DNA from: Rickettsiales bacterium
Lineage (GTDB): Bacteria; Pseudomonadota; Alphaproteobacteria; Rickettsiales; JABIRX01
Length of the DNA: 64,000 bases
Reading direction: 5' to 3'
Assembly: GCA_034111325.1 (NCBI GenBank)
Contig: JAWUXM010000002.1
Span: forward strand, 80,774 to 144,773
In this document: piece after piece, positions 29,485 through 64,000 of the stretch
Layout: every line of letters starts with the position of its first letter
How positions within the stretch are numbered: the stretch's first letter is position 1
Translations under genes and position numbers: made by a program
The notes under the pieces: generated by a model
What the model was told of the DNA's origin: nothing
The model's input: only the letters and a program-made list of their open reading frames with translations
Databases searched by the model: none

Positions 29485-30924
29485 TTAATCAAAGAAATTT
29501 AGACACATATCAACCTTTTTTGATATACTGTCCATAAAACTACCACTGCCATTATAACTGCCATGATGAGAACCAAGAATGCTTTGAGCCCCTCTAAGAA
29601 GATAGCTTTGCTGAGCTTGATAAGCCTGGTCTTGGGCACTAATTAGAATAAAAGGGTGAAGATATTCTATAAGAAAGTCTGTATTTGCTTGATAATTTTC
29701 TTTGGTTTTAATTATATAAAGCGTCATTTCAGCCCACCAAGAACTGCCAACTAAATTATCTTTTTTAATTAATCCATGTTTTTCAAAGAGCTGAATATAG
29801 TCTTGGTATAAAAAGCTACCTTCTCTAATTCTTTTTGCATTTTCTTCATTATCTAACAAAATCGCAATATAAAGAATCGCTGCAAGTAAAATTCCATGCA
29901 CCTTCTTTGTGCCTTGCTGTGCTGTTAGAGTATGAGATAATATTCTAAAAAACTCATCTACTTGTCTTGGAGACAAGTTAAAACAATTACAAATCTCGCA
30001 TATTTGCTCTTGTACGTACTCAATTATATTGTTTGTATAGAATCTATCTGCCCGCCCTTGTCCAAAATACTCTTCAACTTTTGACTTAATATATGACAGA
30101 ACAGCGTTCTCATCTGGCTTTGGAAGGCTAACATTCCTGTGAATGAATTTTCTGTAATATTCTGAAAAATCTAGGTCTCCATATAAGCATCTAATTGATG
30201 ATTCTAGATGCCCTTTGTCTACCCCTAAAATAAATACTACCCCTTTAGTTTGAAAGAAGTGTTTAAGGGTTTCTAGAAAATGAACTGCGTAATTTGGTCT
30301 AGACCTATCCAACTCATCAACTAGGATGAACAAAGGCTTATTTTCTAATGAAGAAATATAACTTTTTAATGACTTATTTAGCTGTTCAAACAAATTGCTC
30401 TTTTCAACATATTCTTTGAAAATTGCATTACCCATTTTTTCATCTCTATCTTTCATGTCTTTTTCAACTATTTCAGCGCATTCCTTTACATTAATCCCTG
30501 TAAATTTATTGATAACTTGATTGGTTGCAATTGCACAACTGCCAATCACCATAAAAAGAGTCTCTTTCAGGCAACTTGTTATTTCTTCATCCAACCCTTT
30601 TTTCTTGTTTAAATGGTCTATTATCTCAGAAGCGATTGTAACTACTGGTTCGTCAAAAAAGTCATTTTTCCAAGCATTGATATGAATAACATCATATTCT
30701 TGACCAACTTCTAAACGGTTCTTCATCATTTCTAAAAAACATGATTTGCCAGAACCAAACTGTCCATTTAGACTCATTACCAAGCTACCTTCAACATGAG
30801 GATATTCAGCAACTACATGTTTTATTAATTTCTCAGCAAAACTTTTTAGGTCCAATTTGTCAAAATGATCAAATGTTTTATCTAAGTTGTTTTTTGCTAA
30901 TTCTGGACCAGTCTCTTTTGTCAT
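29485..30924 (-). CDS. KAP family P-loop NTPase
   Basis: Walker A LNGQFGSGKSCFLEMM is followed by INAWKNDFFDEP. After a long insert comes Walker B FILVDELDRSRPNYAVHFLETLKHFF, then VFILGVDKGHLESSIRCLYG. This is the canonical KAP motif order. Confidence 0.85.
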   Translation of the reverse strand: MTKETGPELAKNNLDKTFDHFDKLDLKSFAEKLIKHVVAEYPHVEGSLVMSLNGQFGSGKSCFLEMMKNRLEVGQEYDVIHINAWKNDFFDEPVVTIASEIIDHLNKKKGLDEEITSCLKETLFMVIGSCAIATNQVINKFTGINVKECAEIVEKDMKDRDEKMGNAIFKEYVEKSNLFEQLNKSLKSYISSLENKPLFILVDELDRSRPNYAVHFLETLKHFFQTKGVVFILGVDKGHLESSIRCLYGDLDFSEYYRKFIHRNVSLPKPDENAVLSYIKSKVEEYFGQGRADRFYTNNIIEYVQEQICEICNCFNLSPRQVDEFFRILSHTLTAQQGTKKVHGILLAAILYIAILLDNEENAKRIREGSFLYQDYIQLFEKHGLIKKDNLVGSSWWAEMTLYIIKTKENYQANTDFLIEYLHPFILISAQDQAYQAQQSYLLRGAQSILGSHHGSYNGSGSFMDSISKKVDMCLNFFD

Positions 30925-31242
30925 TATTTATCTAAATAAAAATTCATTTCACGTAAAAAAGGTGTCAGGGTGTTTGTAGATCGTACATAGTCGACCCTGA
31001 AAGCGTTACCACAATCAGCACCCTGACATAATAGGCCACTATCGCTTCCTAAGAAACGCTATGTACGTGCTACAAAACACAAACGAAGTATTAATCTCTG
31101 GTTAGGCAGGTGTCAATATAGGATGCGTAAGCTTTGCGATAATTAAAAAAATATAATCGCACGAACGATATTTTGCGGCAACAGTGCGGCAATGAGTTTT
31201 TATGTGGGGCTGAGGCAAAAGCCAAGAAGCCTTGGTTTTATG

Positions 31243-31319
31243 TGGTTGCGGGGGCAGGATTTGAACCTACGGCCTTCAGGTTATGAGCCTGACGAGCTAC
31301 CAGACTGCTCCACCCCGCG
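31243..31319 (-). tRNA. Initiator tRNA-fMet (anticodon CAT), CCA encoded
   Basis: The reverse complement reads CGCGGGGTGGAGCAGTCTGGTAGCTCGTCAGGCTCATAACCTGAAGGCCGTAGGTTCAAATCCTGCCCCCGCAACCA. It is 77 nt and near-identical to E. coli tRNA-fMet. It has the C1:A72 mismatch hallmark. The anticodon stem is UCAGG/CCUGA, giving two rather than three G:C pairs next to the loop. Confidence 0.95.
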
Positions 31320-31803
31320 CTAATGACTTAGATTGTTTATGCGTTTTGCACATTGGAATCTAAGGAGAGCGCATTTTGTGGGTTTTCGGCTAAGAGTCAA
31401 GGTTTTATACTAGGCAGCCTGCTCTTATGTGCTGGATATTGTAAATTAATTCGTGACACTCGCACAGTATGGACCCCTGCCTGCGCAGGGATGACGGCTT
31501 GGACGTTATTTTGCGCAAACGTCAGCCTAATAACGACATTCATCTTTAAATGCACATTTCTTGTAGGCATAAAAGCTAGGGGTTTTTGTCACAATCCTAC
31601 GGATAGAAGTAAAATTAGCGATATAGCTTCGTGCAATTTCTCGCCAATAGCTTTGGCTATTAGCTTTACGATTCTACGTGGCTACTCAGCATCTAATTTT
31701 ACATAACTGCAAATGCGTATTTAAAGATGAATGTCGGTATAAGATAAGATATTGCATTAGCAGGAAACCCCTACTATAACTGAAAAAATCACTGAATTTA
31801 TAC

Positions 31804-32733
31804 ATGATGCTTATGTCTCGGAGGTTGATCTCATGCTACTTCTCTCTACTTATCGCGCTTAGCAGCTGTTCACAACGCTCGGCGGAGATCGTCTATAAGG
31901 ACGGGATTTTTTATGGTAAAAACCGCACTGTACAAGCACAAAGACGCACTCAGCCTAACCGCCAAAAAACGACAAATGCCAATGCAATTTATGTTGAGGA
32001 AGGAGACACACTTTATAGCATTGCACGCCGCAATAAAATCTCAACACGTGCCTTAATAAACACTAACTCTCTTAGGCCGCCATATCTTTTAAAAGTTAAT
32101 CAAGAGTTACAAGTTCCATCTGAAAGGCTCACCCATATAGTAAAATCTGGCGATAGTACTTATCAAGTCGCTAATTCATATAACATCTCCGCTAATGATT
32201 TGATTTCGCTAAATCGCCTGGAAAAGCCATATAGACTGCAAACTGGGCAAGTCTTAGTTTTACCTTATGAGGCAAAACGCTCCTCTTCTAAACAAGTAGC
32301 AACAGCTCGCTCAAAGAATAGCCCAACCTCAATCATCCGTAATTCTTCAACCAAACAGAATTTCATATGGCCAGTTAGCGGAAAGATTGTCTCAAATTTC
32401 GGGCCAAAATCCGGCGGGCTGTATAATGATGGTATAAATATTCAAGTTCCTGAAGGCACGCCTATTAAGGCTGCCGCAAGTGGCAAAGTTGTATATATCG
32501 GCAATGAGTTGCGAGGCTATGGGAATTTAATTATTATTCGTCATGATAATGGCTGGTTAACTGCCTATGCACATAGCAAATCCGTCCTGACTAAAAAAGG
32601 CAGCTATGTTAAAACTGGTGACGTTATAGCTTCCGCTGGGCGTACTGGTAATGTGAAATCATCACAGCTACATTTTGGCTTACGCAAAGGTCGTAAGGCT
32701 GTTGATCCGCAAAAATATCTGCACAAATCTTAA
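31804..32733 (+). CDS. nlpD: LysM-domain M23 peptidase lipoprotein (NlpD-like)
   Basis: Lipobox ALSSCSQ and two LysM repeats (YVEEGDTLYSIARRNKIS, HIVKSGDSTYQVANSYNIS). M23 core GINIQVPEGTPIKAAASGKVVY...GNLIIIRHDNGWLTAYAHS. Confidence 0.85.
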   Translation: MMLMSRRLISCYFSLLIALSSCSQRSAEIVYKDGIFYGKNRTVQAQRRTQPNRQKTTNANAIYVEEGDTLYSIARRNKISTRALINTNSLRPPYLLKVNQELQVPSERLTHIVKSGDSTYQVANSYNISANDLISLNRLEKPYRLQTGQVLVLPYEAKRSSSKQVATARSKNSPTSIIRNSSTKQNFIWPVSGKIVSNFGPKSGGLYNDGINIQVPEGTPIKAAASGKVVYIGNELRGYGNLIIIRHDNGWLTAYAHSKSVLTKKGSYVKTGDVIASAGRTGNVKSSQLHFGLRKGRKAVDPQKYLHKS

Positions 32734-33365
32734 TGCAAAACCCCTCCCCTGATCTAGAAAAAATCTATATAAATCTGTGTAACATCACGAATGTTTCACG
32801 TGAAACATTCGTGAGATTGCAGCAATACGTTGACTTCCTTATAAAAAACAACGCTAAAATAAATTTAATTGGCAAGAATACCACAGCAGATATTTGGCAT
32901 CGCCACATATTCGATTCAGCACAAATTCTACAACATCTACCAAAAGACACAAAACGAGTTATAGATATAGGAACTGGCGCTGGTTTGCCAGGAATTATCC
33001 TATCTATTCTTGGTATTGAGGAAGTTGATTTAGTTGAATCAATTACTAAAAAAGCTAATTTTTTACGTGAAGCTGCACAATTCTCGCCTAATAAAATTAA
33101 TGTTTTTAACGATAGGGCTGAGGATTTGATAGCATGGGAAAGCGATGTGGTCACCTCTCGTGCCTGCGCACCGCTTGATAAATTACTTGGTTTTACTGAA
33201 AAATTGATTGCAAAAAGCAAAATTTGCGTATTCCTTAAAGGTAGAAATGTAGAGGAAGAAATTTTGCAGGCTAAAAATACATGGTCTTTTGATTATGATT
33301 TAGCCAAAAGCCTTACTGCGGAAGATTCTTACATCATTAAAATAAACAACGTAAAACATTTATAG
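32733..33365 (+). CDS. rsmG: 16S rRNA (guanine527-N7)-methyltransferase RsmG (GidB)
   Basis: NVSRETFVRLQQYVDFLIKNNAKINL N-terminus and SAM motif DIGTGAGLPGI. It lies immediately upstream of parAB. Confidence 0.9.
   Translation: MQNPSPDLEKIYINLCNITNVSRETFVRLQQYVDFLIKNNAKINLIGKNTTADIWHRHIFDSAQILQHLPKDTKRVIDIGTGAGLPGIILSILGIEEVDLVESITKKANFLREAAQFSPNKINVFNDRAEDLIAWESDVVTSRACAPLDKLLGFTEKLIAKSKICVFLKGRNVEEEILQAKNTWSFDYDLAKSLTAEDSYIIKINNVKHL
32792..32807. promoter_or_regulatory. parS: Intragenic parS site (perfect) inside rsmG
   Basis: TGTTTCACGTGAAACA is embedded in a 28-bp perfect palindrome at 32786-32813. It encodes the conserved VSRET of RsmG. Confidence 0.8.
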
Positions 33366-49860: not shown

Positions 49861-50735
49861 TTATCTTCTCTGCTTACCTTTTCACGCGCAACTAAACGAT
49901 GTCCTCGTCTTTTTTCTATGTGATAGTTAAATTCTGCTCCATAGATAAAAATCATCGCAATGATATAGAAGAACAACAAACTAATAATTACACCTCCTAA
50001 ACTCCCATAGATAACATTTACTTGTTTAAAGCGGCTCAGATATACAGAAAACAACTCACTTGTACCAAGCCATAATAACACTGTAAAAAAAGCTCCAGGG
50101 AAAACATTGTAACATTTTTGCCGCACGTTAGGAATAACATAATAAAGAAACGATGCAGAAAGAAAGAGCAAAGTCGTACTAAATATATAACTAATATTTG
50201 ACCAGCTCGATGGAAGATACTTAAAATCAAGATGAGTAATTTCAATTACTTTATTCATGATCACAGGAGCAACAACAAGTATTAACAAACCAGCTATTAC
50301 AATAAATGTCATAATTAAAAATTGACCAATACTAAGCAAGCGACGCCATATATAGGCAGGTGGAGTAGGCACGCGGTAAGCACGGTTTAGAATTGTACGC
50401 AAACCTTCAACAGCAGAAGAGGCTGTCCAAATTGCGCCGAGAATCGCCAAAGTTAACAAGCCTTGCGGTGGGCCAGAGATTATTTCTTCAATACGCGGCA
50501 ATAGTGCTTTTCCTACATGCTCAGGCAAACTGTCTAGAAACAGCGTAACAAATTTTGTTCCGATCTCTGTTTCGCCGACCATTCCTAAAATCGCCACAAA
50601 AAACACCAAAAAAGGAAAGAGTGATAATAGCGAGAGGAAGGAGAGATAGCCAGCATGCTCAACACCATCATGCTTTATCATGTCTGACAAAGCATCTATA
50701 GAGCTTTTATAAAAATCTTTAGCATGGTTCTTCAT
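49857..50735 (-). CDS. YihY/BrkB family membrane protein
   Basis: AGYLSFLSLLSLFPFLVF and six TM segments are characteristic of the YihY family. Confidence 0.75.
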   Translation of the reverse strand: MKNHAKDFYKSSIDALSDMIKHDGVEHAGYLSFLSLLSLFPFLVFFVAILGMVGETEIGTKFVTLFLDSLPEHVGKALLPRIEEIISGPPQGLLTLAILGAIWTASSAVEGLRTILNRAYRVPTPPAYIWRRLLSIGQFLIMTFIVIAGLLILVVAPVIMNKVIEITHLDFKYLPSSWSNISYIFSTTLLFLSASFLYYVIPNVRQKCYNVFPGAFFTVLLWLGTSELFSVYLSRFKQVNVIYGSLGGVIISLLFFYIIAMIFIYGAEFNYHIEKRRGHRLVAREKVSREDK

Positions 50736-50756
50736 CTCCTTTATGATTTTAGTGAT

Positions 50757-53099
50757 TTATGAACGTAATTTGGCGTTAAATTTACTCTCTATATTTTGTA
50801 TTATTTTATTACTTAAAGCATCTATTTCTTCAGAAGTAAGCGTTTTCTCCTGCGGTTGAATTTTAACATTTAAAGCTATGGATTTCTCCCCTGACTTTAT
50901 CCCCTGACCTTTATAAACGTCAAAAATTCGCACATCCTCTATTAAACCTTTAGCACTACGATAAATATTATCACTAATATTTGCTGCCTCTATTTCATCA
51001 CTTAATATAAAAGCAAAATCTCGACTTACCGCTTGCAAATCATTTAATATAAATGGCTGTGTTGTTTTTATCATAGGAATATTATCTGGAAAAATTTCAA
51101 ATGCATTTATGCGTTGATCAAACCCTAGATTTTTTAATATTTGTGGATGAATTTCACCGAAATAACCAATAATATTTTTACCAAACTTAATTGTAGCAGA
51201 GCGAGTAGGGTGGAAATAATCAGGAAAGCCTTCCTTGCTAAAAGACAGTTTTTTTACATCAACTCCACTAAGTGCGATTGCCTTTATCGAATCATCCTTT
51301 ACATCAAAAACATCAAAATCACGGCTATCATTATTGACCGATTTTTCACAAGAAACCCCGCAACGAATTCCCGCCAAACTGCTGATTTGATCTTCTGGCT
51401 TTGTGCCATGGAATATGCTGCCTAATTCAAAAATTGTTGTTTTGGTAAAGTTCCGATCATCATTTTTAATAGCTTTGTCAACTAGGTTAGGCAAAAGAGA
51501 AGCACGCATAACATCTAGATCTTCACTAATCGGGTTAAGAAGTCCTATGCTGTTTAAAGCAAAAAGCTTGGCTTTCTTGCTGGAAATAAAGGACCAGCTA
51601 ATAACTTCATCCAACCCGCAAGCGGCCATGTTTTTACGTAGATTTTTATGAGCCGCATGATGTGAAGGAAGCGTGTTTAATTGTTCGCTTGCAAAGCTCT
51701 GCGGGATAATTTTATCTAAACCATAAAGGCGCAAAACTTCTTCGATCAAATCTACCTCAATGGTAAGATCCGAGCGCCAGCTAGGAACCCTAACTTTTCC
51801 TGACTCTATACTGCAACCTAATTTCTTTAGAATTTCTTCTACTTTCTTTTGCGGAACGTCTACTCCGGTAATTTTAGCAATTTGGGCAAAATCAAATTTA
51901 ATTTCTCTTATTTGCGCCGTGCTTTTATCGGCAATTGTTTTTTTACTTAACTCACCACCGCAAATCTCATGAATTAGGCTTGCCGCATAATCCAAAGCCT
52001 GCTCAACAAAAGCCACATCAACATTCCTCTCAAAGCGATATCTTGCATCACTTTCTATGTTAATTTTACGCCCTGTAAGGGTAATATTTTCAGAGGCAAA
52101 AAATGCGGCTTCAACAAGGATATTTTGGCTTTTATCATTAATTGCGGAATCTTTCCCGCCAATAATTCCCGCTAGAGATAAAATCTTCTCTTTATCGCTA
52201 ACGACTATCATTTCTTTGCCAAGCGTATAATTTTCATCAAGCAATGATTTAAACTTTTCACCTTCTTTTGCATGGCGAACTTCTATATCACCAGCGATTT
52301 CATCAGCATCATATGCATGAATTGGCTGACCAAAATTATAGGCAATATAGTTTGTTACATCAATTATGGCATTTCTGCTCTCGATGCCAATCGCCGCTAA
52401 GCGTACTTTTAGCCATTCAGGGCTTGGTTTGTTTTGCAGGTTTTTAATATAGCGAGTGGTGAATTTACAATTAGCAATAGTTACAGTGCTTTTAACTGGA
52501 TTATCAAACCTATCTTTAATTTTAGGAGCGGCGAGTGGTTTTAACTTGCCTGCACCAGCTGCGGCTAGGTCTCGCGCTATGCCATATACACCTAAGCAAT
52601 CCCCACGATTTGGCGTGATTGCGATTTCAATTATTGCATCTAACCCTAATATTTTAGCAATATCTGACTGCATGTTTGTGTTTTCAGGCAAGTCAATTAT
52701 CCCCTCAGAATCTTGTCCTAAACCAAGCTCTGCCTTTGAACAAAGCATACCGCTTGATTCAACGCCGCGAATTTTGGCTTTTTTAACTTCCATCCCATTA
52801 GCTGGAACAATTCCACCAATTGGCGCTAAAATTGTTTTTAGCCCCTTACGAACATTTGGGGCGCCACAAACTATTTGTAGCTTTTGCCCATCTGCTTCTA
52901 CTTCGCAAATATTGAGGCGGTCTGCATCTGGATGTTTTTTGAAATTTGTAATTTGTGCTATTTGGAAATTTTTCAAACTTGCAGCTTGATCAATGACTGA
53001 TTCAACCTCTAAACCAATGGAGGTTAGAATCTCGCAAATTTCATCAACGGAAAGATTGGTATCTAGATATTCCTGTAGCCAATTAAAGGTGAATTTCAT
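50757..53099 (-). CDS. pheT: Phenylalanine--tRNA ligase beta subunit
   Basis: MKFTFNWLQEYL, a tRNA-binding domain (KHPDADRLNICEV), B3/4 and B5 regions, and a C-terminal FDX-ACB domain. Confidence 0.95.
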   Translation of the reverse strand: MKFTFNWLQEYLDTNLSVDEICEILTSIGLEVESVIDQAASLKNFQIAQITNFKKHPDADRLNICEVEADGQKLQIVCGAPNVRKGLKTILAPIGGIVPANGMEVKKAKIRGVESSGMLCSKAELGLGQDSEGIIDLPENTNMQSDIAKILGLDAIIEIAITPNRGDCLGVYGIARDLAAAGAGKLKPLAAPKIKDRFDNPVKSTVTIANCKFTTRYIKNLQNKPSPEWLKVRLAAIGIESRNAIIDVTNYIAYNFGQPIHAYDADEIAGDIEVRHAKEGEKFKSLLDENYTLGKEMIVVSDKEKILSLAGIIGGKDSAINDKSQNILVEAAFFASENITLTGRKINIESDARYRFERNVDVAFVEQALDYAASLIHEICGGELSKKTIADKSTAQIREIKFDFAQIAKITGVDVPQKKVEEILKKLGCSIESGKVRVPSWRSDLTIEVDLIEEVLRLYGLDKIIPQSFASEQLNTLPSHHAAHKNLRKNMAACGLDEVISWSFISSKKAKLFALNSIGLLNPISEDLDVMRASLLPNLVDKAIKNDDRNFTKTTIFELGSIFHGTKPEDQISSLAGIRCGVSCEKSVNNDSRDFDVFDVKDDSIKAIALSGVDVKKLSFSKEGFPDYFHPTRSATIKFGKNIIGYFGEIHPQILKNLGFDQRINAFEIFPDNIPMIKTTQPFILNDLQAVSRDFAFILSDEIEAANISDNIYRSAKGLIEDVRIFDVYKGQGIKSGEKSIALNVKIQPQEKTLTSEEIDALSNKIIQNIESKFNAKLRS

Positions 53100-53155
53100 A
53101 TTGTAATTATGGTGCTTTCATTTATTTTCTGAACTGCGCAGAACTATAAATTTGT

Positions 53156-54388
53156 ATGACCGAAAAGACAATTATAAAAAGACACAAAACCCACGCTGTA
53201 AAAGTTGGTAATGTTACGATTGGTGGCGATTCTCCTGTTATTGTCCAATCAATGACCAATACTGACACAGTCGATAGCGCCAAAACCGCCGCACAAATAA
53301 TTGAGCTCTTTCAAGCAGGCTCAGAAATTGTCCGCATTACCGTCAATAATGAAGAGTCCGCCAAAGCTGTTCCCATAATTCGCAATATCCTAATTCAAAA
53401 CGGTTTTCCTAATATCCCTTTGGTTGGGGATTTTCATTATAACGGTCACCAGCTTTTGCAAGATTTTCCTGAATGTGCGAAAGCACTTGATAAATATCGT
53501 ATAAACCCTGGCAATGTTGGCTTCGGCAATAAAAAAGATGCCCAGTTTGAAATGATGATCAAACAAGCAATAAAATATGATAAACCTGTACGGATTGGTG
53601 TTAATTGGGGCAGTTTGGATCAAGCATTATCAGCAGAATTGATGGATAAAAACGCCAAGTCAAAATCACCAAAATCTTCCGAGGAGATTCTTCAAGAAGC
53701 GTTAATCCTCTCTAGTTTGAACAGTGCTAAAATGGCCGAGAGCCTTGGCCTGGCAAAAGATAAAATCATCATTTCTTGTAAAGTTAGTAAAGTTCAATCA
53801 TTGATTTTTATCTATCGCGAATTAGCAAAAAGATGCAGCTATCCCCTCCACCTTGGGCTAACCGAAGCAGGAATTGGCTCAAAGGGAATTGTTGCAACTA
53901 CCGCCGCTTTATCAACCCTTTTACAAGAAGGAATTGGCGATACAATTCGTGCATCGCTAACTCCAGAAGTCGGGCAATCACGTGATGTCGAAGTTATTGT
54001 CTGTCAGGAGATCTTACAAACCTTGGGGATTCGGGCATTTTCGCCATTAGTTACCGCATGTCCCGGCTGTGGACGCACGACTAGCTCATATTTTCAAAAG
54101 CTAGCTGGCGACATTCAACGTTTTATTCGCAAGAAAATCCCCGAATGGAAAGAAAAATACCCTGGTGTTGAAAATATGGATGTTGCGGTTATGGGCTGTA
54201 TAGTTAATGGCCCTGGGGAAAGTAAACATGCAAATATAGGTATTAGCTTACCAGGAACTGGGGAATCACCAGCTGCGCCAGTTTTTATGGACGGAAAGAA
54301 AACACAAACTTTGCGCGGCGACAATATAGCAGCTGAGTTTCAAAAACTACTGGAAAATTACGTTATATCAAAATATTCTAAAAAGTAA
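53156..54388 (+). CDS. ispG: 4-hydroxy-3-methylbut-2-en-1-yl diphosphate synthase
   Basis: [23 protein letters not shown] and GCIVNGPGE. Confidence 0.95.
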
Positions 54389-54393
54389 AAACC

Positions 54394-54720
54394 ATGCATA
54401 AAATCATCATCCTTAGCTTGTTGTTCATAACCTCTTGTTCTTCTGCACCAAAAATCCTCCCTAACACTCAAACTGATTATCGTCTGACTTGTAAGCAGAT
54501 CAAAACAGAAGTTGCCTCTTTGCAAGAATATAGAAAAAAATTAGAAGAAAGTGATCGCTTCTCTATGAAAAACATGTTGATTGTTCCTGCAATTAAAATT
54601 GCCTTTACCAAGGACAAAAATCAAAAAAAGATTGATGCAAGGGTAAACCACTTACGTAAGGCCTATGTCTATAATGGCTGTTCTCAACGCTCAGGTCAAA
54701 ACCCAAATTATTATCAGTAA
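54394..54720 (+). CDS. Hypothetical lipoprotein
   Basis: Signal plus lipobox FITSCSS. No other motif recognised. Confidence 0.5.
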   Translation: MHKIIILSLLFITSCSSAPKILPNTQTDYRLTCKQIKTEVASLQEYRKKLEESDRFSMKNMLIVPAIKIAFTKDKNQKKIDARVNHLRKAYVYNGCSQRSGQNPNYYQ

Positions 54721-54872
54721 CTTCTAAATCTGGTCTTTTTGCACCCTTTTTAGTAAAAAAGCTTAGATTTTAGAGAGGAAAAGATACATAAGTAAGGAAC
54801 AGAAAAAGAATTAAGAGATCTCATTAAAAAGTCCTTTATCTATAAAGTAAGTTAATAATATTCGGTATAAAC

Positions 54873-55985
54873 ATGCGAAATTTAAAAATAACATCATCCC
54901 TATTATTAGGGGAAATCTATAAAATTAAATTATACGTCCATTGGACTTTCCTGCTTTTAATTGGCTGGGTTCTGTTTATAAAATTTGACGATGGTTTTAA
55001 TTTAGAGCAAGCAATTCTCAGGGTGGTTTTTATTGTCGCGTTATTTAGCTGTGTGATTGCGCATGAATTAGGCCACGCCTTGACTGCTAGGAAGTTTGGT
55101 TTTCAAACTAAAAATATTATTTTATTGCCTATTGGGGGAGTTGCGCAAATTGAGAAAATGCCTGAAGAGCCTTGGCAGGAATTAATCGTGGCGATTGCCG
55201 GCCCTTTAGTGAGTTTTGCTATTGCCATATTGCTTTATACCATTGTAAATATTACTGGTGAATTTCCCTCTCCTATCCAAATGGAGAATATAAGTATGGA
55301 TAATTTTATCGGTAATCATTTCCTTCTTTATCTGTCTTTGATTAATTTTATGTTAGCAATTTTTAACCTTATCCCAGCGTTCCCAATGGATGGAGGGCGC
55401 ATCTTGCGTGCTTTATTGTCCATGGGTTTAGGGCGTTTAAAAGCTACTGAGGTTTCGTCTGTAATTGGTCAATTTTTATCAATTATATTTATCATCTTTG
55501 CGATCCAGAGTCATAACCCTTGGTTAGCTATTATAGGAGCCTTTATATTTCTAGCCGCTAAAGGTGAAGCAGTGCATGAGGATGTTAAATCCTTATTATC
55601 TAAATATAGAGTGCGGGATTTAACTATGAGTAAATACACTACCCTGAATTCTGATGATAGCGTAGATAAGGCAGTTGCTATAATACTAAATGGTCAGGAA
55701 AGGGACTTCATTGTGGCTAAGGGGCAAGAGACAGTCGGGATTTTAACTAGGGACGATATTATCAAAGCTTTATCACAGAAAAATAACTCACCTTTGGTTC
55801 ATCAAGTGATGAATAAGAATTTTCTAAAGTTAGATCCAAATATGAATCTTGCCGAAGCTTATGAGCAAATGTTGGTTAAGCGTTTTGCTGTAGCGGCAAT
55901 TGTTGAAGATGGTAAGTTAATTGGCATATTAGATACTGAGAATATTCAAGAAAGCCTGTTGTTTCAAAAGGCTCTAAAGAAATAG
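54873..55985 (+). CDS. Site-2 protease family (M50) metalloprotease with C-terminal CBS pair
   Basis: HELGHAL zinc motif, NLIPAFPMDGGRIL, and CBS-like C-terminal repeats. Confidence 0.8.
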   Translation: MRNLKITSSLLLGEIYKIKLYVHWTFLLLIGWVLFIKFDDGFNLEQAILRVVFIVALFSCVIAHELGHALTARKFGFQTKNIILLPIGGVAQIEKMPEEPWQELIVAIAGPLVSFAIAILLYTIVNITGEFPSPIQMENISMDNFIGNHFLLYLSLINFMLAIFNLIPAFPMDGGRILRALLSMGLGRLKATEVSSVIGQFLSIIFIIFAIQSHNPWLAIIGAFIFLAAKGEAVHEDVKSLLSKYRVRDLTMSKYTTLNSDDSVDKAVAIILNGQERDFIVAKGQETVGILTRDDIIKALSQKNNSPLVHQVMNKNFLKLDPNMNLAEAYEQMLVKRFAVAAIVEDGKLIGILDTENIQESLLFQKALKK

Positions 55986-55993
55986 CTAGGTTT

Positions 55994-56362
55994 TTAGGAA
56001 GTCTTTTTAATGTGACTTTGCTCTCTAAAATAAAAATAAATTAACACACTAACAATAGCCGCGAAGAAGCACCAGATAGAAATATAAACTTCAGTATATA
56101 TAAAATATGCTACGCAGAACATTAATAGGTTAGCAACGCCGATTTGATGTATGAATGGCTTGCTTGATAGGAAGAATGGCAGAGCTATGGTCGCTAGATA
56201 AACCCATCTAACATAACCAATATTCTCTAAGGGAGAGCTATAGCCAATGCAGTGATCAATAATTTCTGCACTAAAGCCGCCTACGAACATAGTCTTTATT
56301 GTGAAAAACACTACTATGAGCCCAGTGCAAAATGTTGCCATTATTAGGCGCAGCCAAAGCAT
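55994..56362 (-). CDS. Hypothetical integral membrane protein
   Basis: Four hydrophobic segments, located downstream of secD. Too short and unlike SecF. Confidence 0.4.
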   Translation of the reverse strand: MLWLRLIMATFCTGLIVVFFTIKTMFVGGFSAEIIDHCIGYSSPLENIGYVRWVYLATIALPFFLSSKPFIHQIGVANLLMFCVAYFIYTEVYISIWCFFAAIVSVLIYFYFREQSHIKKTS

Positions 56363-56394
56363 AGATGATTTGTTATAGGCCTAAAAAACAGATT

Positions 56395-57954
56395 TTAAAG
56401 TGGGATGGTTTTTGATTTTGTTTTTCTTAACCACGTAACAACCATCAAGCGGGTAAGAGAGGTTGCTGAAAACATTGATGTTAAAATTCCTATTGATAGC
56501 GTTACCGCAAAACCTTTAACTGGGCCAGAGCCAAAATAGAAAAGAACTAAAGCAGCAACCAACGTCGTAATATTAGAATCAACAATAGTTTTAAAAGCGC
56601 TAGAAAAGCCTTTTTCCACAGAACCAAAAGCTGTGTTTCCAGAATCAAACTCTTCCTTTATTCGTTCAAAAATTAACACATTAGAATCAACCGCCATTCC
56701 TATTGTTAGGACGATTCCAGCAATTCCTGGCAATGTCAAAGTCGCACCAAAGATTGACAATAGGGCTGTGATAAAAACAATGTTCATGATCAAGGCAATA
56801 TTAGAGAAAATACCAAATAATCCATAGCTTAAAATCATAAATACCATTACGGCAACTATACCAATTACTACCGCTTTTCTGCCTGCCTTTATTGAATCTA
56901 GCCCAAGGCTTGGGCCAACTGTACGTTCTTCAATAATGTTAAGTGGCGCAGGCAAAGCTCCCGCACGTAAAAGTAAGGCTAAGTCATTAGCTGATTCTAT
57001 AGTAAAGCTACCAGATATTATTCCCTCACCACCTAAAATAGGCTCTCTTATAACAGGGGCGCTGATTACCTTATTATCAAAAACTATCGCAAGTGAAACG
57101 CCTACATTTTCAGTGGTTAGTTTTGCGAATTTCTTAGCCCCTAAACTATCAAATTTAAAATTCACTACTGCTTCAGCTTGGTTAAGGGTTGCCCTTGCAT
57201 CAATTAGTGACTCCCCATTTATTTCTACTTTTTTACGAACTGAGTAACGATATTTTGGTGCTCCAAACTCATCGGCTTCAATACTAGAGATTGTTCTTGT
57301 GCCTATTTCACCATAAGATTCTCTTTCAACAAGGCCGTTTTTACCCAGCAAATGAAATGATATTTTAGCAGTTTTGCCAAGTAGGTTTTTAAGTCTTTCA
57401 GGATTTCCAACCCCCGGAACTTGTAATAATATTCTATTATTGCCTTGGCTTTGAATAAGCGGCTCTTTTGTGCCTGTTTCATCAACTCTTCTTCTGACAA
57501 TTTCTATAGACTGCTCAAGAACTTTCACTCGCATATCCCGCATGAAATTATCTGAGTATCTCACTCCGACATTTTGCCCGTCACGCACAAGGATAATTTC
57601 ATTCCCCAAACTTTTACTAATAGAAGAAATATCGAGCTTCTCCTCGGCGCGGCGCAGTTCAAAAGATACGCCACTTTCATTAAGCGCAAGATTCATGTAA
57701 CCAACCCTATCTTTACGTAGGGTGTTCCTTACTTCATCTTTTAAAATGTCTAGTTTTTCTTTGAAGTAACTATCAAAATCAACCTCTAAAAGAAGGTGTG
57801 CTCCACCTTGCAAATCAAGCCCCGCATTTATTTCTGTGTTTTTAAGAAACTCAGGACGATCATTTTTATCAATAAAATTAGGAAAAGAAAACAATATTGC
57901 TAGCGCGCAAATTGTAAGAATCGACGATATTTTCCAAGTTGGGAAATTAAGCAT
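56395..57954 (-). CDS. secD: Protein translocase subunit SecD
   Basis: GLDLQGGAHLLLEV, a periplasmic P1 region, and C-terminal TM block with AGIAGIVLTIGMAVDSNVLIFERI. Confidence 0.9.
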   Translation of the reverse strand: MLNFPTWKISSILTICALAILFSFPNFIDKNDRPEFLKNTEINAGLDLQGGAHLLLEVDFDSYFKEKLDILKDEVRNTLRKDRVGYMNLALNESGVSFELRRAEEKLDISSISKSLGNEIILVRDGQNVGVRYSDNFMRDMRVKVLEQSIEIVRRRVDETGTKEPLIQSQGNNRILLQVPGVGNPERLKNLLGKTAKISFHLLGKNGLVERESYGEIGTRTISSIEADEFGAPKYRYSVRKKVEINGESLIDARATLNQAEAVVNFKFDSLGAKKFAKLTTENVGVSLAIVFDNKVISAPVIREPILGGEGIISGSFTIESANDLALLLRAGALPAPLNIIEERTVGPSLGLDSIKAGRKAVVIGIVAVMVFMILSYGLFGIFSNIALIMNIVFITALLSIFGATLTLPGIAGIVLTIGMAVDSNVLIFERIKEEFDSGNTAFGSVEKGFSSAFKTIVDSNITTLVAALVLFYFGSGPVKGFAVTLSIGILTSMFSATSLTRLMVVTWLRKTKSKTIPL

Positions 57955-58322
57955 TATTTCTTGATTTTTTGCTTCTTGTTTTTAGCCGTCGTTTTTTTAG
58001 CTTCAACTGCTTTGAATTTTTCCTGAGAAAGGTTAGCTATCGTTGATTTTAAAACTTTAACATTGATGCTATCTGCAATTTCTAAAACAACTATGTCATT
58101 TTCTTCAACCTTAAGAATCTTGCCAATAACGCCACCAGCAGTAACAACAACGTCGCCTTTTTTAACACCCTCGATCATTAATTTATGTTCCTTAACTCTT
58201 TTTTGTTGTGGACGGATCAATAAGAAATAAAAAATAAAGAATATTAAAATTATTGGCATCAAGCCAGCAAATGGTGATGTGGTTGAAGAAGTACCTATGG
58301 CCGCAAAAGCTTGAGAAATCAT
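57954..58322 (-). CDS. yajC: Preprotein translocase subunit YajC
   Basis: LIRPQQKRVKEHKLMIEGVKKGDVVVTAGGVIGKI core. Its stop overlaps the secD start. Confidence 0.85.
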   Translation of the reverse strand: MISQAFAAIGTSSTTSPFAGLMPIILIFFIFYFLLIRPQQKRVKEHKLMIEGVKKGDVVVTAGGVIGKILKVEENDIVVLEIADSINVKVLKSTIANLSQEKFKAVEAKKTTAKNKKQKIKK

Positions 58323-58450
58323 GATTTAAATTGGTTTGAGTTAGATTTTGCACACAAGATGCAAGAAGTAACTCTTTAAGCAAGTAATTATTGTAAAAAA
58401 CATAAGTTTTTCATAGGATGCTTCTCCATCAGATATAAATAATAAAAATT

Positions 58451-59104
58451 ATGAGCAAAGCCATAAAAATTTCTCCCTCTATCCTATCTGCAAATTTTGC
58501 TGATCTTGGTAATGAGGTAAAAGCCATCACAGAGGCTGGGGCAGATTATATCCATGTCGATGTGATGGATGGAAATTTCGTTCCTAATATCACAATCGGG
58601 CCCGATGTAGTTTCTGCAATTCGCCCATATAGCGAACTGGTTTTTGATGTGCACTTAATGATTAATAACCCTGAAAAATATGTAGGTAGCTTCGCTAAGG
58701 CTGGTGCAGATATCATAACTATTCACTATGAAGCTGTGGACGATTTGGATGCTGCAATATCCCAAATTCAAAAACTCGGCGTTAAAGCAGGCGTTTCTAT
58801 TGTTCCCGCCACACCCGCAAATGTTTTGGATTCTATAATTGATAAAGTAGATTTGATTTTAGTTATGACTGTTAACCCAGGTTTTGGCGGGCAAAGCTTT
58901 ATGGCGGATCAATTAGACAAAATAAAAGCGCTTCGTCAGAAAATTGAGCAAAGCGGTAGGAAAATAGACCTTGAGGTTGATGGCGGAATTAACCCCGAAA
59001 CTGCAAAACTTTGTATCCAAGCAGGTGCAAATGTCCTCGTTGCCGGCTCCGCAATCTTCAAAGGCACTGGCTCTTATAAGGAGAATATTGAGAGTTTGCG
59101 GTAA
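58451..59104 (+). CDS. rpe: Ribulose-phosphate 3-epimerase
   Basis: PSILSANFA, HVDVMDGNFVPN and MTVNPGFGGQ. Confidence 0.95.
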   Translation: MSKAIKISPSILSANFADLGNEVKAITEAGADYIHVDVMDGNFVPNITIGPDVVSAIRPYSELVFDVHLMINNPEKYVGSFAKAGADIITIHYEAVDDLDAAISQIQKLGVKAGVSIVPATPANVLDSIIDKVDLILVMTVNPGFGGQSFMADQLDKIKALRQKIEQSGRKIDLEVDGGINPETAKLCIQAGANVLVAGSAIFKGTGSYKENIESLR

Positions 59105-59399
59105 CAAGATTTATCAGAATAATTTCGATCTAAATACTTTGCAGGTAAAAGCACTTCTGGAAATGTCTGATCAAGTGTATGATACATTGCTAGCGTTGAT
59201 TTCGGTTTCGGCCAACATATCAACAAAACAATTGATGGAGTAGATCTCTTTAATTAGCAATGTTCGTAATTTAAAAAACCAATATGTTGTAGCAACCAAA
59301 TCTCTGGCGAGATTCTAAGGAAAGCGTCACAATGCAGATACAGGGGTTTGTGCAATCTGCATTATTTACTAGTAATGTGGTTAAGCGTAATTCCAAAAC

Positions 59400-62300
59400 C
59401 TAGCTTAGTTTGGATAAATCAAGCACAAGTATCTTTGTTTTTTCTTCATCTAAATCTTTATTTAATAGATCCAGCATTTCTGAAGGGGTAGTGGGAGTTA
59501 GCAAATTTTTAGGTTTTTTGATAGCTCTATTTTGACTAGTGTTAGTTCCAAACCAAAGAACGCAGTATATGCCTCTTCCTCCAACCCTGCCATCCTTTTG
59601 ATAATTTGCTAATTGCTGATAGTGGGCAGTCCACACATCTTTATGCCACTGACCCTTGATTTCTATTGGAAGCTTTAACAGGGAATGTGAGCAAAGTATG
59701 TCGCAGCGCTTATCATCTACCACATCCCCCTCTCTACCGCAAGACACGTTGAAGCTATTTAAATAATGAGATAACTCATCTATTATTAAGTCTCTACAGT
59801 GGTTCTCTACACGAGGCTCATCCTCCAATTTCCAAAATTTTGTTATACGAGTGTTATTGCCACTCCTTAAGTAGTTCTGCAATCTAACTAATTGATCAAA
59901 TACAACTGCCTGCAAATCTTCATGGTCAGAAGGTTCGCTTTGCATTAATATTTTCCTAACCCCATGAAGAGTTACGATTTTTATCTCCTCATTAGCCTTT
60001 TTTGTTTTCTGGTTGTAATGCAGATTCTTTATAAGATTTTGATATTGTTCCAATCCAGAGTAATTTACTAAATCACCTAGTTTTTTTATACCTTCGTCAG
60101 AATAATTATTTGATAAGTTTTGTATTTGCTGACGAATAAAGTCGGAAGCTTGCCGCGCATTCTTATTGCCAGAGCCGGAAGAAGGCATATCAACTGGAGG
60201 CCACAAAGAACCAAATAGTGTTATCAAAAAATAACTCTGCTCAATGCTTAAAATATTTATATTTGATTCACAGTACGAAACAAGATATTTTAGGTACCAT
60301 ATAGTTTCTTTTTTATCCTCAATATAAGTTTTTAAGGTTTTTTGACTAAATTCATAATCAACTATAAATGCAGCTCCCATCCATAGCCCTTTAATCTCTT
60401 CCCTCTCCCACTTATCTGCCTTGATTTTTCCTCTTATAATTTTTTTTAACCTCTCAGGGGCATGCTTTATGGCAATTGATAAAATCTCCTTCAGAGGATT
60501 AAATGAAACGCTGCTAAATTTGTTTAGCCAAGCAATTGATAAATCTTCTAAAATATCGTAAAATATTTCATCTCGTGCAATTTCGCATAATCCCCTAACA
60601 TGATCCACCTTTGCGCCCAGTTGTGATTCAATCAAGATGCGTAAAAATTCTTTTTTGGTCTTGTTGTTACCAAAAACTATATCTCGCAAATAGAGTTCTA
60701 GGTTTCTTATCTCAAAATTTTCTCTGAATAATTCCCATCGGCACGAGGCTAAAATAGAAAATAAGATTTCTTTTGGTTGATGATGTAGCTCATTTCTTTC
60801 TAGCAAAATAATGCCATACGCCAATAAAATCGATTCATGGAGATAAGATTTATTTAATGCATGCGCCTCGCAAATTTTATATACCGAAGGAATGTCCTCA
60901 CATTTCTTTATAAAAGAATTTAATCCCTCTAATGCAATTAACACGTTTTGTTTACCGGCAAGCTCTTCAACCCTCTCCAGAGAAGAATTGCCGCTTATTT
61001 TTGAAAAACATTCTCCTAAATATGCACAGGATATTCGGTGAATTTGTCCAAAATTAGTTCCGGATTTTATCTCAATTTGCGCTGAGTCATAACACTTATG
61101 GCGCTTTAGCTTTTCTTCTTCTTTTTCTCTTTTTGATTTTTCTTCACGTTCCTGAGATTTTCTTGCCCAGTCATTTTCAGCAGGCTTTTCTAAGGAAGTT
61201 AAATATTCCTTTAGCAAGTTATTTTGTTCAGCGTGAATTCTTACAAGCTTTAAGACTTCGCCAGAAGATGAGGATCTGACAAGACCTATGTAGCAATTAC
61301 TCCAGTTTTTATCTTTTATCTCTTCTTTAAATAAATCATCTAAATGTTTTATTATATCTTCTTCGCTAAAGGATAATCCTATACTTAGATTCTTAATTTC
61401 ATGTACAGTCATAAGTGTATTATTAGAATCACGCAAAGCTAATTTCTGAATAATATATTTTAGACCTTTATTTTCTTGAAAGTAGTTTAAACTAAATTCA
61501 TCCCATGCAGAGTGATCATGGGGACTCATATTCTCCAAACCCTTAATCCAGCTCCATAATTTTTCTGCATCAAGATTGGGAACAAGTTCTAAATATCTTT
61601 TTGTAAACTTAAAAACCCACTCCCCGATAGAACTATTATGGTTTTCATATGTGTTTTCAGAAATTGTGTGTAGTGCAGTTTCTAGTTGTTCAGAAGATAG
61701 GTTTTTCTCTATTCCATGTCCTATTCCAAACACAGGGATTTCATCATCTTTCCCGTTCAGAAAGTCTATTTTAATTAGGATATTTGCTATGTCGTTTCCA
61801 CTAAATGTAAAAGATTTATCCTGTATTATATCAATCGCTAAGCATAAAGAGTTAAAGTCACCACCGTATTCTTGAAGTTTAGATATTATTTTTTGCCAAT
61901 TGTCATATTTTTCCGATGCCAATAAAGCGCCAATTGCGGCATCTCGCTCAATGAAACTTTTTGTTTTATCAAGAATGAATTTTTCTAGTTTTTGGTAAAT
62001 AGAATCAGGAAAGAGATCAACCTGTATTGCCTCTAAAACCAGACATATTATTTGTCTGGAAGGCCCTTGAATGATCTTAACAATTTCATTATAAACCTCT
62101 GGTTCTGAGATATTTCTTTGGGTTTTTATACCTCTATTAGATATATGAAACCACGGATCTTTGTCATTTAGATACTCTAAGCACAATAAAAGATGCCTAA
62201 GTTGACTTGCATTTAATTCTGACGCATCAGCATATATTAGTATTCCGTATGGGTCTCTCTCAATTAAACCGTTAACTAAGTCCTTATTTTCTAAGGCCAA

Positions 62301-63350
62301 GAAAGTGGTTAAATGCGCATACAACCCTCTTAAAGAAGAAGGGACAATTCTATGGCTTCCATAAAATATGGTATTTAATCTTCTAGGGGAAATTGGTTTT
62401 TCAAGAAAATAAGAGATCCATTTTCCCGCTAGATATTCAGCAATTGTTCTGTGAAAAGGCTCTATTGTTATACTAGAGACAATATTAAATAATTTTGTTG
62501 ATACAGCATATTTTAAAGTCTTCAGTTGATATTCTTCGTTAGCTAAATCTTTTAATGAAGGAAGGGATGTGTTTTGCGTTCCTATATGTATTCCGCCAAT
62601 GCCAGACAAAATTAATTGAGAAAATATAAAGCCGCAGGTTTCTATTAACTTTTGATTAGAAGGGCGGTCATCACTTCCCATATCAAGGTGAATGAGATTA
62701 CTTTCTTCTACAAGAATCTCACAAAAATCATTATATAATTTATGTTTTGAATCAGGCCACCCTCCTTCCTTAACCACCTCTATGAACATTTTAAGAATTA
62801 AAGGATTGTATATCATGTCTTCTTCTACTCCACACTTTACGGACTTAGATAAGAATGTTTGGGGGGTAATATTTGTATACTTTGTTGTGATAAACTCTAT
62901 AACATCGGCATCACTAAATCTTTGAAGTATCCCTATGGTTAGTTCGCAACCCCATCTTTTTTTTATTCTATCTTCATATGTAGATTTCCAATCAACCGAT
63001 CTACAAGTAATGATAAAATTTGGCTTTTCTAAATGAGATATTTTTGACCAAACCTGATTAGATTCATATTGAGAATAAGCTGTAACCTCATCCAATCCAT
63101 CAATTATTATTTTTACGTCATTATTGCCACTTTCAACCGAAGAATAAATAGAGAGATCTGAAGCGTTGTATATGCTAGACCCACTCCTTTTTCTATACTC
63201 CTCAACCAAACAACTTTTACCCAATCCAGGTTCTCCTAAAATAATTAGCGGCCCATCCAAGTTAAGAAAATCTTCATCAGAGTATTCTTTGCTATCGTTG
63301 TTGCTATCGTTGTTTTGATTTACAAATATTTTACGCGAGATGTAATTCAT
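59400..63350 (-). CDS. Large (1316-aa) NACHT/STAND-like P-loop NTPase with helical-repeat body and C-terminal PD-(D/E)xK-like nuclease-fold module (candidate defence protein)
   Basis: Walker A is GEPGLGKS (aa 39-46) and Walker B is IIIDGLDEV. About 1000 aa follow that look helical by composition. The C-terminus reads HCRDLIIDEL...GDVVDDKRCDILCSHSLLKLPIEIKGQWHKDVW...GIYCVLWFG, giving an E...D...(E-x-K) arrangement. The gene is visibly more AT-rich than neighbouring housekeeping genes. Confidence 0.7.
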   Translation of the reverse strand: MNYISRKIFVNQNNDSNNDSKEYSDEDFLNLDGPLIILGEPGLGKSCLVEEYRKRSGSSIYNASDLSIYSSVESGNNDVKIIIDGLDEVTAYSQYESNQVWSKISHLEKPNFIITCRSVDWKSTYEDRIKKRWGCELTIGILQRFSDADVIEFITTKYTNITPQTFLSKSVKCGVEEDMIYNPLILKMFIEVVKEGGWPDSKHKLYNDFCEILVEESNLIHLDMGSDDRPSNQKLIETCGFIFSQLILSGIGGIHIGTQNTSLPSLKDLANEEYQLKTLKYAVSTKLFNIVSSITIEPFHRTIAEYLAGKWISYFLEKPISPRRLNTIFYGSHRIVPSSLRGLYAHLTTFLALENKDLVNGLIERDPYGILIYADASELNASQLRHLLLCLEYLNDKDPWFHISNRGIKTQRNISEPEVYNEIVKIIQGPSRQIICLVLEAIQVDLFPDSIYQKLEKFILDKTKSFIERDAAIGALLASEKYDNWQKIISKLQEYGGDFNSLCLAIDIIQDKSFTFSGNDIANILIKIDFLNGKDDEIPVFGIGHGIEKNLSSEQLETALHTISENTYENHNSSIGEWVFKFTKRYLELVPNLDAEKLWSWIKGLENMSPHDHSAWDEFSLNYFQENKGLKYIIQKLALRDSNNTLMTVHEIKNLSIGLSFSEEDIIKHLDDLFKEEIKDKNWSNCYIGLVRSSSSGEVLKLVRIHAEQNNLLKEYLTSLEKPAENDWARKSQEREEKSKREKEEEKLKRHKCYDSAQIEIKSGTNFGQIHRISCAYLGECFSKISGNSSLERVEELAGKQNVLIALEGLNSFIKKCEDIPSVYKICEAHALNKSYLHESILLAYGIILLERNELHHQPKEILFSILASCRWELFRENFEIRNLELYLRDIVFGNNKTKKEFLRILIESQLGAKVDHVRGLCEIARDEIFYDILEDLSIAWLNKFSSVSFNPLKEILSIAIKHAPERLKKIIRGKIKADKWEREEIKGLWMGAAFIVDYEFSQKTLKTYIEDKKETIWYLKYLVSYCESNINILSIEQSYFLITLFGSLWPPVDMPSSGSGNKNARQASDFIRQQIQNLSNNYSDEGIKKLGDLVNYSGLEQYQNLIKNLHYNQKTKKANEEIKIVTLHGVRKILMQSEPSDHEDLQAVVFDQLVRLQNYLRSGNNTRITKFWKLEDEPRVENHCRDLIIDELSHYLNSFNVSCGREGDVVDDKRCDILCSHSLLKLPIEIKGQWHKDVWTAHYQQLANYQKDGRVGGRGIYCVLWFGTNTSQNRAIKKPKNLLTPTTPSEMLDLLNKDLDEEKTKILVLDLSKLS

Positions 63351-63499
63351 GTCCTCATTTTGATTTTTTATTTAAGATAAACGGCGCAATGCTATGTGAT
63401 TATTAATAATTTTCAAAATATTGCCTAAGCCCTTTTCTTCCCACTCCCCACTAAACTCAGGAAGCCTCAATTTTAAAATGTTATTTTTTGCTTTAATAT

Positions 63500-64000
63500 T
63501 CATTTAATGTTTTTAATTTTCTCTTCTAATTGATCTAACTCTTTCAAATCTTCGTCATCAGCTAGCTTGGCATCAAATGCTTTTCTTTTTAAGTCAAAAT
63601 CTTCATAGATTTCTTTAACTTCTTTTTCCATTTGGGCATTACTAATTTTGCCAGAATTTTGAAGAAGATTCATGTCGTTAGATTGTAAAATGCGATCAAC
63701 ATTTTCTTGCCAAAATTTCATAATAATATCCTTGCGGCTTTTTGCTCTAAGCTCTGCTGTTTCTAAGAAAATTGTTACTAAACGATTTAAAATATCTAAC
63801 TCTTCTGCTGATAAATAATTTTTGGCAATAATAATATCTTGCTTTCTAACAACGCCACCTTGCCAAGAAGTTAGTGCCATATTGGGTTTATTAGCATCTG
63901 CTCTATTAAGAATTATTTCTGCGGCAGTTTTATTGGTAACAGCATATAAAAGTTTATTTTGCGTCCCGGCAAAGAACATTTGAGTTGCTTTATCACTTTT
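63500..64000 (-). CDS. RhuM family protein, partial (N-terminus beyond right window edge)
   Basis: FFAGTQNKLLYAVTNKTAAEIILNRADANKPNMALTSWQGGVVRKQDIIIAKNYLSAEELDILNRLVTIFLETAELRAKSRK matches the conserved C-terminal half of RhuM-family proteins. The frame stays open upstream of the track's Met to position 64000. Confidence 0.8.
   Translation of the reverse strand, partial: KSDKATQMFFAGTQNKLLYAVTNKTAAEIILNRADANKPNMALTSWQGGVVRKQDIIIAKNYLSAEELDILNRLVTIFLETAELRAKSRKDIIMKFWQENVDRILQSNDMNLLQNSGKISNAQMEKEVKEIYEDFDLKRKAFDAKLADDEDLKELDQLEEKIKNIK

Follow-up and report, generated by a model that had tools for sequence, protein, structure and literature searches.

Near one end of a 64,000-nucleotide stretch of DNA from a Rickettsiales bacterium (assembly GCA_034111325.1, contig JAWUXM010000002.1, positions 80,774 to 144,773; hereafter the window) lies a gene for a 1316-residue protein that is most probably an intact, divergent member of the Erebus (EruA)/Avs10 family: a single-protein, NLR-like anti-phage sensor. 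A first-pass annotation, made from the letters alone, had described the gene as a candidate undescribed single-gene defence system. The single-gene assignment holds, by homology. The word "undescribed" does not: the protein matches a named family, NCBIfam NF058535, over its full length. The system has already been described and named; what is new is a distant member of it, not a kind of defence. Its parts, all on the minus strand, are these:

59400..63350, minus: eruA-like gene, 1316 codons from an ATG start, encoding NACHT, helical sensor and PD-(D/E)xK regions (NCBIfam NF058535)
62391..63263, minus: NACHT NTPase module, residues ~30-320, comprising nucleotide-binding domain, helical domain and winged helix (AlphaFold2, Foldseek)
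63213..63236, minus: Walker A motif (P-loop) GEPGLGKS, residues 39-46; G44 and K45 invariant in 44 sequences
63087..63113, minus: Walker B motif of NACHT type, KIIIDGLDE, residues 80-88; D84, D87 and E88 invariant
59949..62390, minus: presumed sensor region, residues 321-1134, helical where modelled (residues 321-700)
59403..59948, minus: PD-(D/E)xK nuclease-like domain, residues 1135-1316, the presumed effector (AlphaFold2, Foldseek)
59601..59807, minus: catalytic core, residues 1182-1250, with E1182, E1207, D1217, E1230-x-K1232 and Q1246xxxY1250

The open reading frame is real, and the motifs GEPGLGKS, IIIDGLDE (residues 81-88), RCDIL and IEIKGQW stand where they had first been placed, the P-loop lysine being K45 as proposed.

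Family identity rests on the NCBIfam model "NACHT domain-containing antiphage protein EruA" (antiphage_EruA), matched with E 5.5e-292 and 972.3 bits. The match is a single co-linear stretch, pairing protein residues 15-1313 with model positions 7-1318 of 1318. Homology thus runs through some 1320 residues, and the likeness to Erebus takes in the NACHT domain, the helical region, the C-terminal domain with its E, D, ExK and QxxxY residues, and the single-gene arrangement. NCBI places the equivalog cut-off for EruA at 1000 bits. The closest relatives clear it (P0002, 1222 bits; P0010, 1158; P0015, 1225), as does a Pseudomonas homologue that, at 1380 bits, is the best-scoring relative checked; more distant relatives fall under it (P0039, 987 bits; P0051, 873 bits). 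The host here is an AT-rich, deep-branching alphaproteobacterium, unlike the source of that best-scoring relative.

A search of 5.8 billion proteins returned 54 relatives, mostly of about 1310-1380 residues. (Pfam PF28130.1 is precomputed on most of the homologues P0001-P0053.) In a neighbour-joining tree of 44 homologues, which is distance-based and carries no support values, the 1316-residue protein pairs with the P0002-P0012 clade, itself above the EruA cut-off. The sister of this pair is the clade that contains P0015, P0022 and P0026, likewise above it, and P0039 and P0051, both below it, branch farther out. Because its nearest relatives pass the cut-off and it is placed among them, we treat the protein, despite its own sub-threshold score, as a divergent EruA member rather than an automatic equivalog.

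PADLOC v2 (2023) gave no match for the protein, and PHROGs gave no useful one. These libraries are older than the family, so the blanks are no sign of novelty; the lack of a model in PADLOC 2.0 probably explains why the gene looked undescribed. Sequence and profile searches of the PDB with the whole protein likewise found no real match. Erebus is a single-gene system in DefenseFinder. NCBIfam, for its part, gives one Erebus gene only, eruA.

Hypnos (HyoA, NCBIfam NF058534) is a related NACHT protein. The 1316-residue protein resembles it weakly and in part: it scores 76.9 bits against the HyoA model, whose cut-off is 1200, with its best stretch at residues 299-504, and the HyoA model is about 110 residues longer. 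For some relatives (P0010, P0039) the alignment to HyoA extends over the C-terminal end, which makes the C-terminal domain an apparent common feature of Hypnos and Erebus.

The name Erebus goes back to van den Berg et al. 2024 (Cell Host Microbe), according to Lee et al. (bioRxiv January 2026; Nature July 2026, PMC13581612). For Erebus, Hypnos and bNACHT64, which they group as Avs10, Lee et al. refer to that work and to Kibby et al. 2023. They describe a screen of 600 phage genes, in which Avs10-triggered cell death was specific to major capsid proteins; AlphaFold models of Avs10, in which the sensor sits on the penton- or hexon-forming face of the capsid protein A-domain; capsid-dependent cell death caused by Avs10 representatives carried as single genes in Escherichia coli; and loss of that cell death when effector domains were mutated or deleted.

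The N-terminal module was modelled with AlphaFold2 over residues 1-700, on the 44-sequence alignment (mean predicted local distance difference test, pLDDT, 87.6; predicted template modelling score, pTM, 0.81). A strand at residues 35-38 precedes the P-loop; the Walker B strand occupies residues 81-84; and the sensor-1 strand ends at R117. A helical domain follows, and then a winged helix whose wing, residues 288-298, stands ahead of H300-R301. The features that define a NACHT module are therefore all present: Walker A, the Walker B sequence, the sensor-1 arginine, and the winged-helix H300-R301 within FHRTIAEYL. G44, K45, D84, D87, E88, R117, P183, H300 and R301 are invariant in the 44 sequences.

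Foldseek comparison of this model with the PDB returned NLRC4 (2.5e-8), NLRP3 (3.7e-7), a STAND-TPR protein (6.5e-7), Avs4 (2.9e-6) and NAIP5 (3e-5). In Pfam, neither NACHT (PF05729) nor any STAND model exceeded its gathering score, the only match being nSTAND3 at 19.7 bits against a cut-off of 27.2; PF05729 is recorded for several homologues. The sub-threshold score reflects sequence divergence and is compatible with a NACHT fold. On the model and the motifs, then, the N-terminus is a NACHT-type STAND NTPase that begins at about residue 30, as had been proposed, with no N-terminal effector: just some 30 residues lie ahead of the nucleotide-binding domain. The likeness to the eukaryotic proteins NLRC4, NLRP3 and NAIP5 is one of NACHT fold (Foldseek 2.5e-8 to 3e-5) and of a DGLDE-type Walker B. 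They differ in the rest of the chain, since this protein has no CARD, PYD or LRR; its presumed sensor is helical, and its presumed effector is an enzyme domain at the C-terminus.

The long region that follows had been judged helical from its composition. It is helical as far as modelled (residues 320-700), the AlphaFold2 model being all-helical from about residue 300 to 700. By analogy with Avs10, we infer that this region is a sensor that binds the phage major capsid protein.

Conservation along the protein peaks in the C-terminal domain, with a mean identity to the query of 36%. An AlphaFold2 model of residues 1120-1316 (pLDDT 87.8, pTM 0.85) shows a helix-strand-strand-strand-helix-strand core. 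The segments ENHCRDLIIDEL, KRCDIL and IEIKGQW are located within residues 1182-1235. E1182 stands at the start of the first core helix (model residues 63-81); D1217 lies just before strand 2 (99-103); E1230 and K1232 are on strand 3 (106-114); and Q1246 and Y1250 are on the next helix (123-131). These residues, together with E1207, are invariant in 44 homologues that are 19-38% identical to the query. The QxxxY motif is typical of RecB/Cas4-like members. Top Foldseek matches in the PDB are mostly PD-(D/E)xK nucleases: SfsA, Hjc, Can2, R2 endonuclease, Bax1, McrC, EcoO109I and HindIII.

We conclude that the C-terminal ~180 residues are, by the model, a PD-(D/E)xK-type module with an intact predicted catalytic set. 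The first-pass annotation had read the fold, the aspartate of RCDIL and the E-x-K of IEIK correctly; only its helix acid was misplaced, the conserved residue being E1182, five residues before DLIIDEL. That the nuclease is the effector, with DNA as its substrate, is our inference. An exhaustive phmmer search with the domain against 1.84 billion representatives found 1574 clusters at E <=1e-3. The domain is at or near the C-terminus in all 150 of the matches listed; those longer than 1200 residues are nearly all of 1285-1401 residues, and the shorter ones, in which the domain again lies at or near the C-terminal end, look like fragments cut at the N-terminus.

This arrangement is also the clearest difference from other Avs proteins. 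Avs1-4 and Avs7 likewise join a STAND NTPase to a large sensor, built of helices, that recognises a conserved structural protein of phages; Avs4 is a structural match of the N-terminal model; and Avs7 senses the capsid protein and uses a nuclease of PD-(D/E)xK class (Cap4). In these proteins, however, the effector is N-terminal to the NTPase, the usual STAND layout according to Lee et al. (PMC13581612), whereas here NACHT begins at about residue 30 and the nuclease comes last, after the sensor. No Cap4 or Mrr match was found for the C-terminal nuclease, which belongs to a different sequence family from that of Avs7. The inverted domain order noted at first is thus genuine, in that the effector is C-terminal; it is the fixed layout of the whole family, not a peculiarity of this gene.

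These elements suggest a mechanism, in which the anti-phage activity, the capsid trigger and the need for an effector domain would carry over from the literature on relatives. In the uninfected cell the protein would be an auto-inhibited monomer. Upon infection, the helical sensor would wrap newly made, monomeric major capsid protein of HK97 fold, much as the TPR-like sensor of Avs10 wraps the capsid A-domain in the AlphaFold models. Capsid binding would release NACHT-driven, nucleotide-dependent oligomerisation, which would join or unmask the C-terminal nuclease domains and lead to degradation of DNA. Infection would be stopped, probably at the cost of the cell, as in abortive infection. Family membership would predict the same sequence of target binding, oligomerisation and effector-dependent cell death as in Avs10. 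By the same analogy, so distant a copy (<=38% identity to any sequence found) would keep the same trigger.

Several points weigh against this reading. The score on the EruA model is about 3% (28 bits) short of the equivalog cut-off. The best non-self homologue is only 38% identical, and conservation in the family is lowest in the sensor, where residues 481-1134 of the homologues show 19-24% identity to the query, against 36% for the C-terminal domain; the tested representative, EhAvs10, comes from Enterobacter. Given this divergence in sequence, trigger specificity may differ. Foldseek matches of the C-terminal domain are weak (best E 5e-3, none <=1e-3), and neither PDB sequence and profile searches nor Pfam gave an above-threshold match for it, the sub-threshold Pfam matches being only HSDR_N, PDDEXK_9 and Tox-REase-9. 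Lee et al. (PMC13581612), in the article apart from its supplementary figures, leave the Avs10 effector domain unnamed, and a passage of a March 2026 preprint on Erebus carried by a Pseudomonas plasmid calls the Erebus mechanism "currently unclear". Finally, an adjacent hsdS gene is truncated, so the island is decaying and the eruA-like gene could be disappearing too.

Some of these points bear on a specific alternative: that the C-terminal domain is not the killing effector and serves instead in DNA binding, oligomerisation or regulation, the effector being a partner protein. A candidate partner comes from the neighbourhoods of homologues. At least 583 relatives were confirmed among 185,579 species-representative genomes; Proteobacteria account for most of them, and other phyla for a few. 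Neighbourhoods were compared for 80 species-representative and 13 metagenomic loci (93 in all). Clustering of the flanking open reading frames revealed one recurrent neighbour only: a same-strand, abutting gene for a protein of ~400 residues with AAA_14 and DUF4143 domains, equivalent to the PADLOC candidate PDC-S01. It abuts the EruA homologue, often overlapping its start or stop, in 21 of the 80 loci, in genomes of very different taxa:

PDC-S01 abutting the homologue: L006, L010, L015, L019, L020, L022, L023, L025, L034, L039, L040, L043, L047, L048, L052, L053, L056, L062, L076, L077, L078
PDC-S01 on both sides of the homologue: L015, L019, L022

The pairing of PDC-S01 with an Erebus gene may represent a two-gene variant, or PDC-S01 may just habitually travel along. 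As an account of where the effector lies, this recurrence would sit well with the weak fold matches and with the mechanism that the preprint calls unclear. Against it, PDC-S01 is missing from about three quarters of the loci and from the window itself, and the Avs10 representatives tested by Lee et al. in E. coli caused capsid-dependent death as single genes. Moreover, the E, D, ExK and QxxxY residues are invariant in 44 very divergent sequences and lie in the most conserved region, as befits an enzyme. We therefore consider a non-effector C-terminal domain decidedly unlikely. (A kinship between the C-terminal domain and the nuclease domain of the DUF4143 neighbour was also tried and rejected: hhalign gave a probability of 1.5% and aligned the D...ExK core alone, so the two are not specifically related.)

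A composite extension of the preferred Erebus/Avs10 reading does not give up the C-terminal nuclease. Since the nuclease is placed after the sensor, not beside NACHT, its route of activation may differ from that of Avs proteins with N-terminal effectors, possibly through release by the capsid-bound sensor; the domain would be private to the Erebus/Hypnos lineage; and about a quarter of the loci may use the abutting PDC-S01 gene as a two-gene variant. Taken as a whole, this proposal has an outside chance of being right.

The other nearest neighbours of the homologues are mixed. They include integrases, transposases, HerA, type I and type II methyltransferases, bSEFIR, BovA, SoFic and other PDC candidates, as well as housekeeping genes, transporters and RelA/SpoT. 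A 440-residue AAA_22-like ATPase (PDC-S59-like) lies downstream of the homologue in three loci (L027, L028, L080), all from Burkholderiales. No conserved partner gene was found in the 93 loci, and the neighbourhood comparison that had been suggested at the outset revealed variable contexts with no conserved housekeeping neighbours. Homologues are also carried by 23 plasmids, of which 13 are conjugative, and by one phage-like record. This mixed context, rich in mobile elements and defence genes, together with the plasmids, fits a defence gene that is mobile and self-sufficient, not a housekeeping gene.

The immediate surroundings of the gene in the window comprise the following features:

56395-57954, minus: secD
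57954-58322, minus: 122-codon open reading frame, putative yajC by its position beside secD
58451-59104, plus: rpe, downstream of the eruA-like gene
63372..63503, minus: hsdS remnant, 43 codons (tblastn against plasmids; context only)
63500-64000, minus: RhuM-family gene, 3' part only, since the window stops within it (Pfam PF13310, PADLOC PDC-S05)

The locus had been called visibly AT-rich, and so it is, modestly: the eruA-like open reading frame has 33.8% GC against a mean of 38.3% (standard deviation 1.5%) in 4-kb windows of the rest of the stretch, and no other 4-kb window is as GC-poor. GC at third codon positions (GC3) is 0.285, the value of the housekeeping genes. The low GC therefore stems from amino-acid composition and is not a signal of fresh transfer; recent horizontal transfer, considered from GC content, was dropped on this ground. 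No tRNA that could serve as an integration site was found within 50000-64000. The host itself is a poorly sampled alphaproteobacterium, in that the closest non-self relatives of its SecD, labelled as Rickettsiales or Alphaproteobacteria metagenome-assembled genomes, are only 57% identical.

These measurements speak to a second alternative, that the eruA-like gene no longer functions and is a relic within a defence island in decay. The neighbouring hsdS is down to 43 codons, the score on the EruA hidden Markov model is under the cut-off, and several homologues elsewhere are split or truncated (L014, L038, L067, L059, L066). Against this, the gene's frame of 3951 nt is uninterrupted in 34%-GC DNA, where about 7% of codons are expected to be stops and, by arithmetic, the chance of 1316 open codons is ~1e-43; every invariant residue of the family is kept; a GAGGA ribosome-binding site precedes the ATG; and the host-like GC3 indicates a gene that is resident and maintained. 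A relic is very unlikely.

The upstream side of the gene accounts for the truncated neighbour. The RhuM-family gene is secure (PF13310, E 1e-49, profile positions 117-250 of 252; PADLOC PDC-S05, E 3.5e-57), and its frame runs open up to base 64000. It lies upstream of the eruA-like gene and is co-directional with it, as first described, across a gap of 149 bp (63351-63499). That gap had been given nearly correctly; what had been missed is that it holds a 43-codon remnant of hsdS, whose ATG overlaps the rhuM stop codon (ATGA) and which ends 22 bp before the start of the eruA-like gene. The remnant product starts MNIKAKNNILKLRLPEFSGEWEEKGLGNIL. Searched by tblastn against plasmids, it matched 24 records (best E 3e-4), and nearly all the matches listed are in genes whose annotation reads "restriction endonuclease subunit S". 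Since the alignment starts with the first residues of the remnant, the remnant looks like the beginning of an hsdS gene.

Because the remnant overlaps the rhuM stop, rhuM belongs to what is left of a type I restriction-modification operon. Sequence comparison points to rhuM and the truncated hsdS as the stump of such an operon, now decayed, and suggests that the Erebus gene replaced the rest of it, in place of the hsdS body. The gene upstream of rhuM, past the window end, is presumably hsdM. A further alternative takes RhuM and the NACHT protein as a two-gene defence system. Their shared orientation, their spacing and the standing of RhuM as PADLOC defence candidate PDC-S05 had made the pairing attractive, and the first-pass annotation had hinted at it; yet no RhuM homologue lies within 10 kb in any of the 93 homologous loci, which already largely refutes it, the hsdS remnant stands between the two genes, and the NCBIfam description of Erebus has eruA as its single gene. 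Such a pairing is highly improbable.

That the protein is a STAND NTPase with no part in defence, for instance a housekeeping regulator of transcription or signalling, is barely credible. The gene does adjoin rpe, the putative yajC frame and secD, and many STAND clades are outside immunity (PMC13581612), but relatives in its family have experimentally shown anti-phage activity. Among the homologues no housekeeping neighbour is conserved; many have an integrase, a transposase or a defence gene next to them, or are plasmid-borne, and no metabolic operon was seen to stay linked to the gene from taxon to taxon. A nuclease catalytic set was found, with no DNA-binding output domain detected.

In practical terms, the gene is to be annotated as an Erebus (EruA)/Avs10-like NACHT anti-phage protein, and neither "hypothetical protein" nor "new system" is apt. 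With it the family reaches an AT-rich, Rickettsiales-like alphaproteobacterium from a poorly sampled part of the class. So distant a copy is a useful outgroup for defining the residues that the family cannot lose, namely the NACHT motifs and E1182/E1207/D1217/E1230/K1232/Q1246/Y1250, and this map of invariant residues provides ready mutants for asking whether the C-terminal nuclease is the Erebus effector. The locus would also illustrate turnover within a defence island, with an Erebus gene where the hsdS body used to be. Further value lies in the recurrent PDC-S01 neighbour of other genomes: if the association is functional, Erebus with this AAA_14-DUF4143 ATPase-nuclease would be a two-gene Erebus variant that is absent from the literature descriptions drawn on here.

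Three minor observations concern individual homologues. At the five loci with split or truncated homologues named above, and at L029, the gene is interrupted or shortened (759 + 589 residues in L014); the family is often pseudogenised, or some of the splits are assembly errors. One of the closest relatives, full-length and with 32% identity, is present at L002 (MEZD01000048.1), a 9.5-kb contig of a metagenome-assembled genome labelled "Candidatus Bathyarchaeota archaeon", and represents either cross-domain transfer or a binning error. Lastly, the record H31 (MT835554.1, "Bacteriophage sp.", from human faeces) carries a homologue over 76% of the protein at 30220-33321; the record, labelled as phage and without annotation, is 33.4 kb long, and the homologue is right at its end. 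This may be a prophage- or satellite-borne copy.

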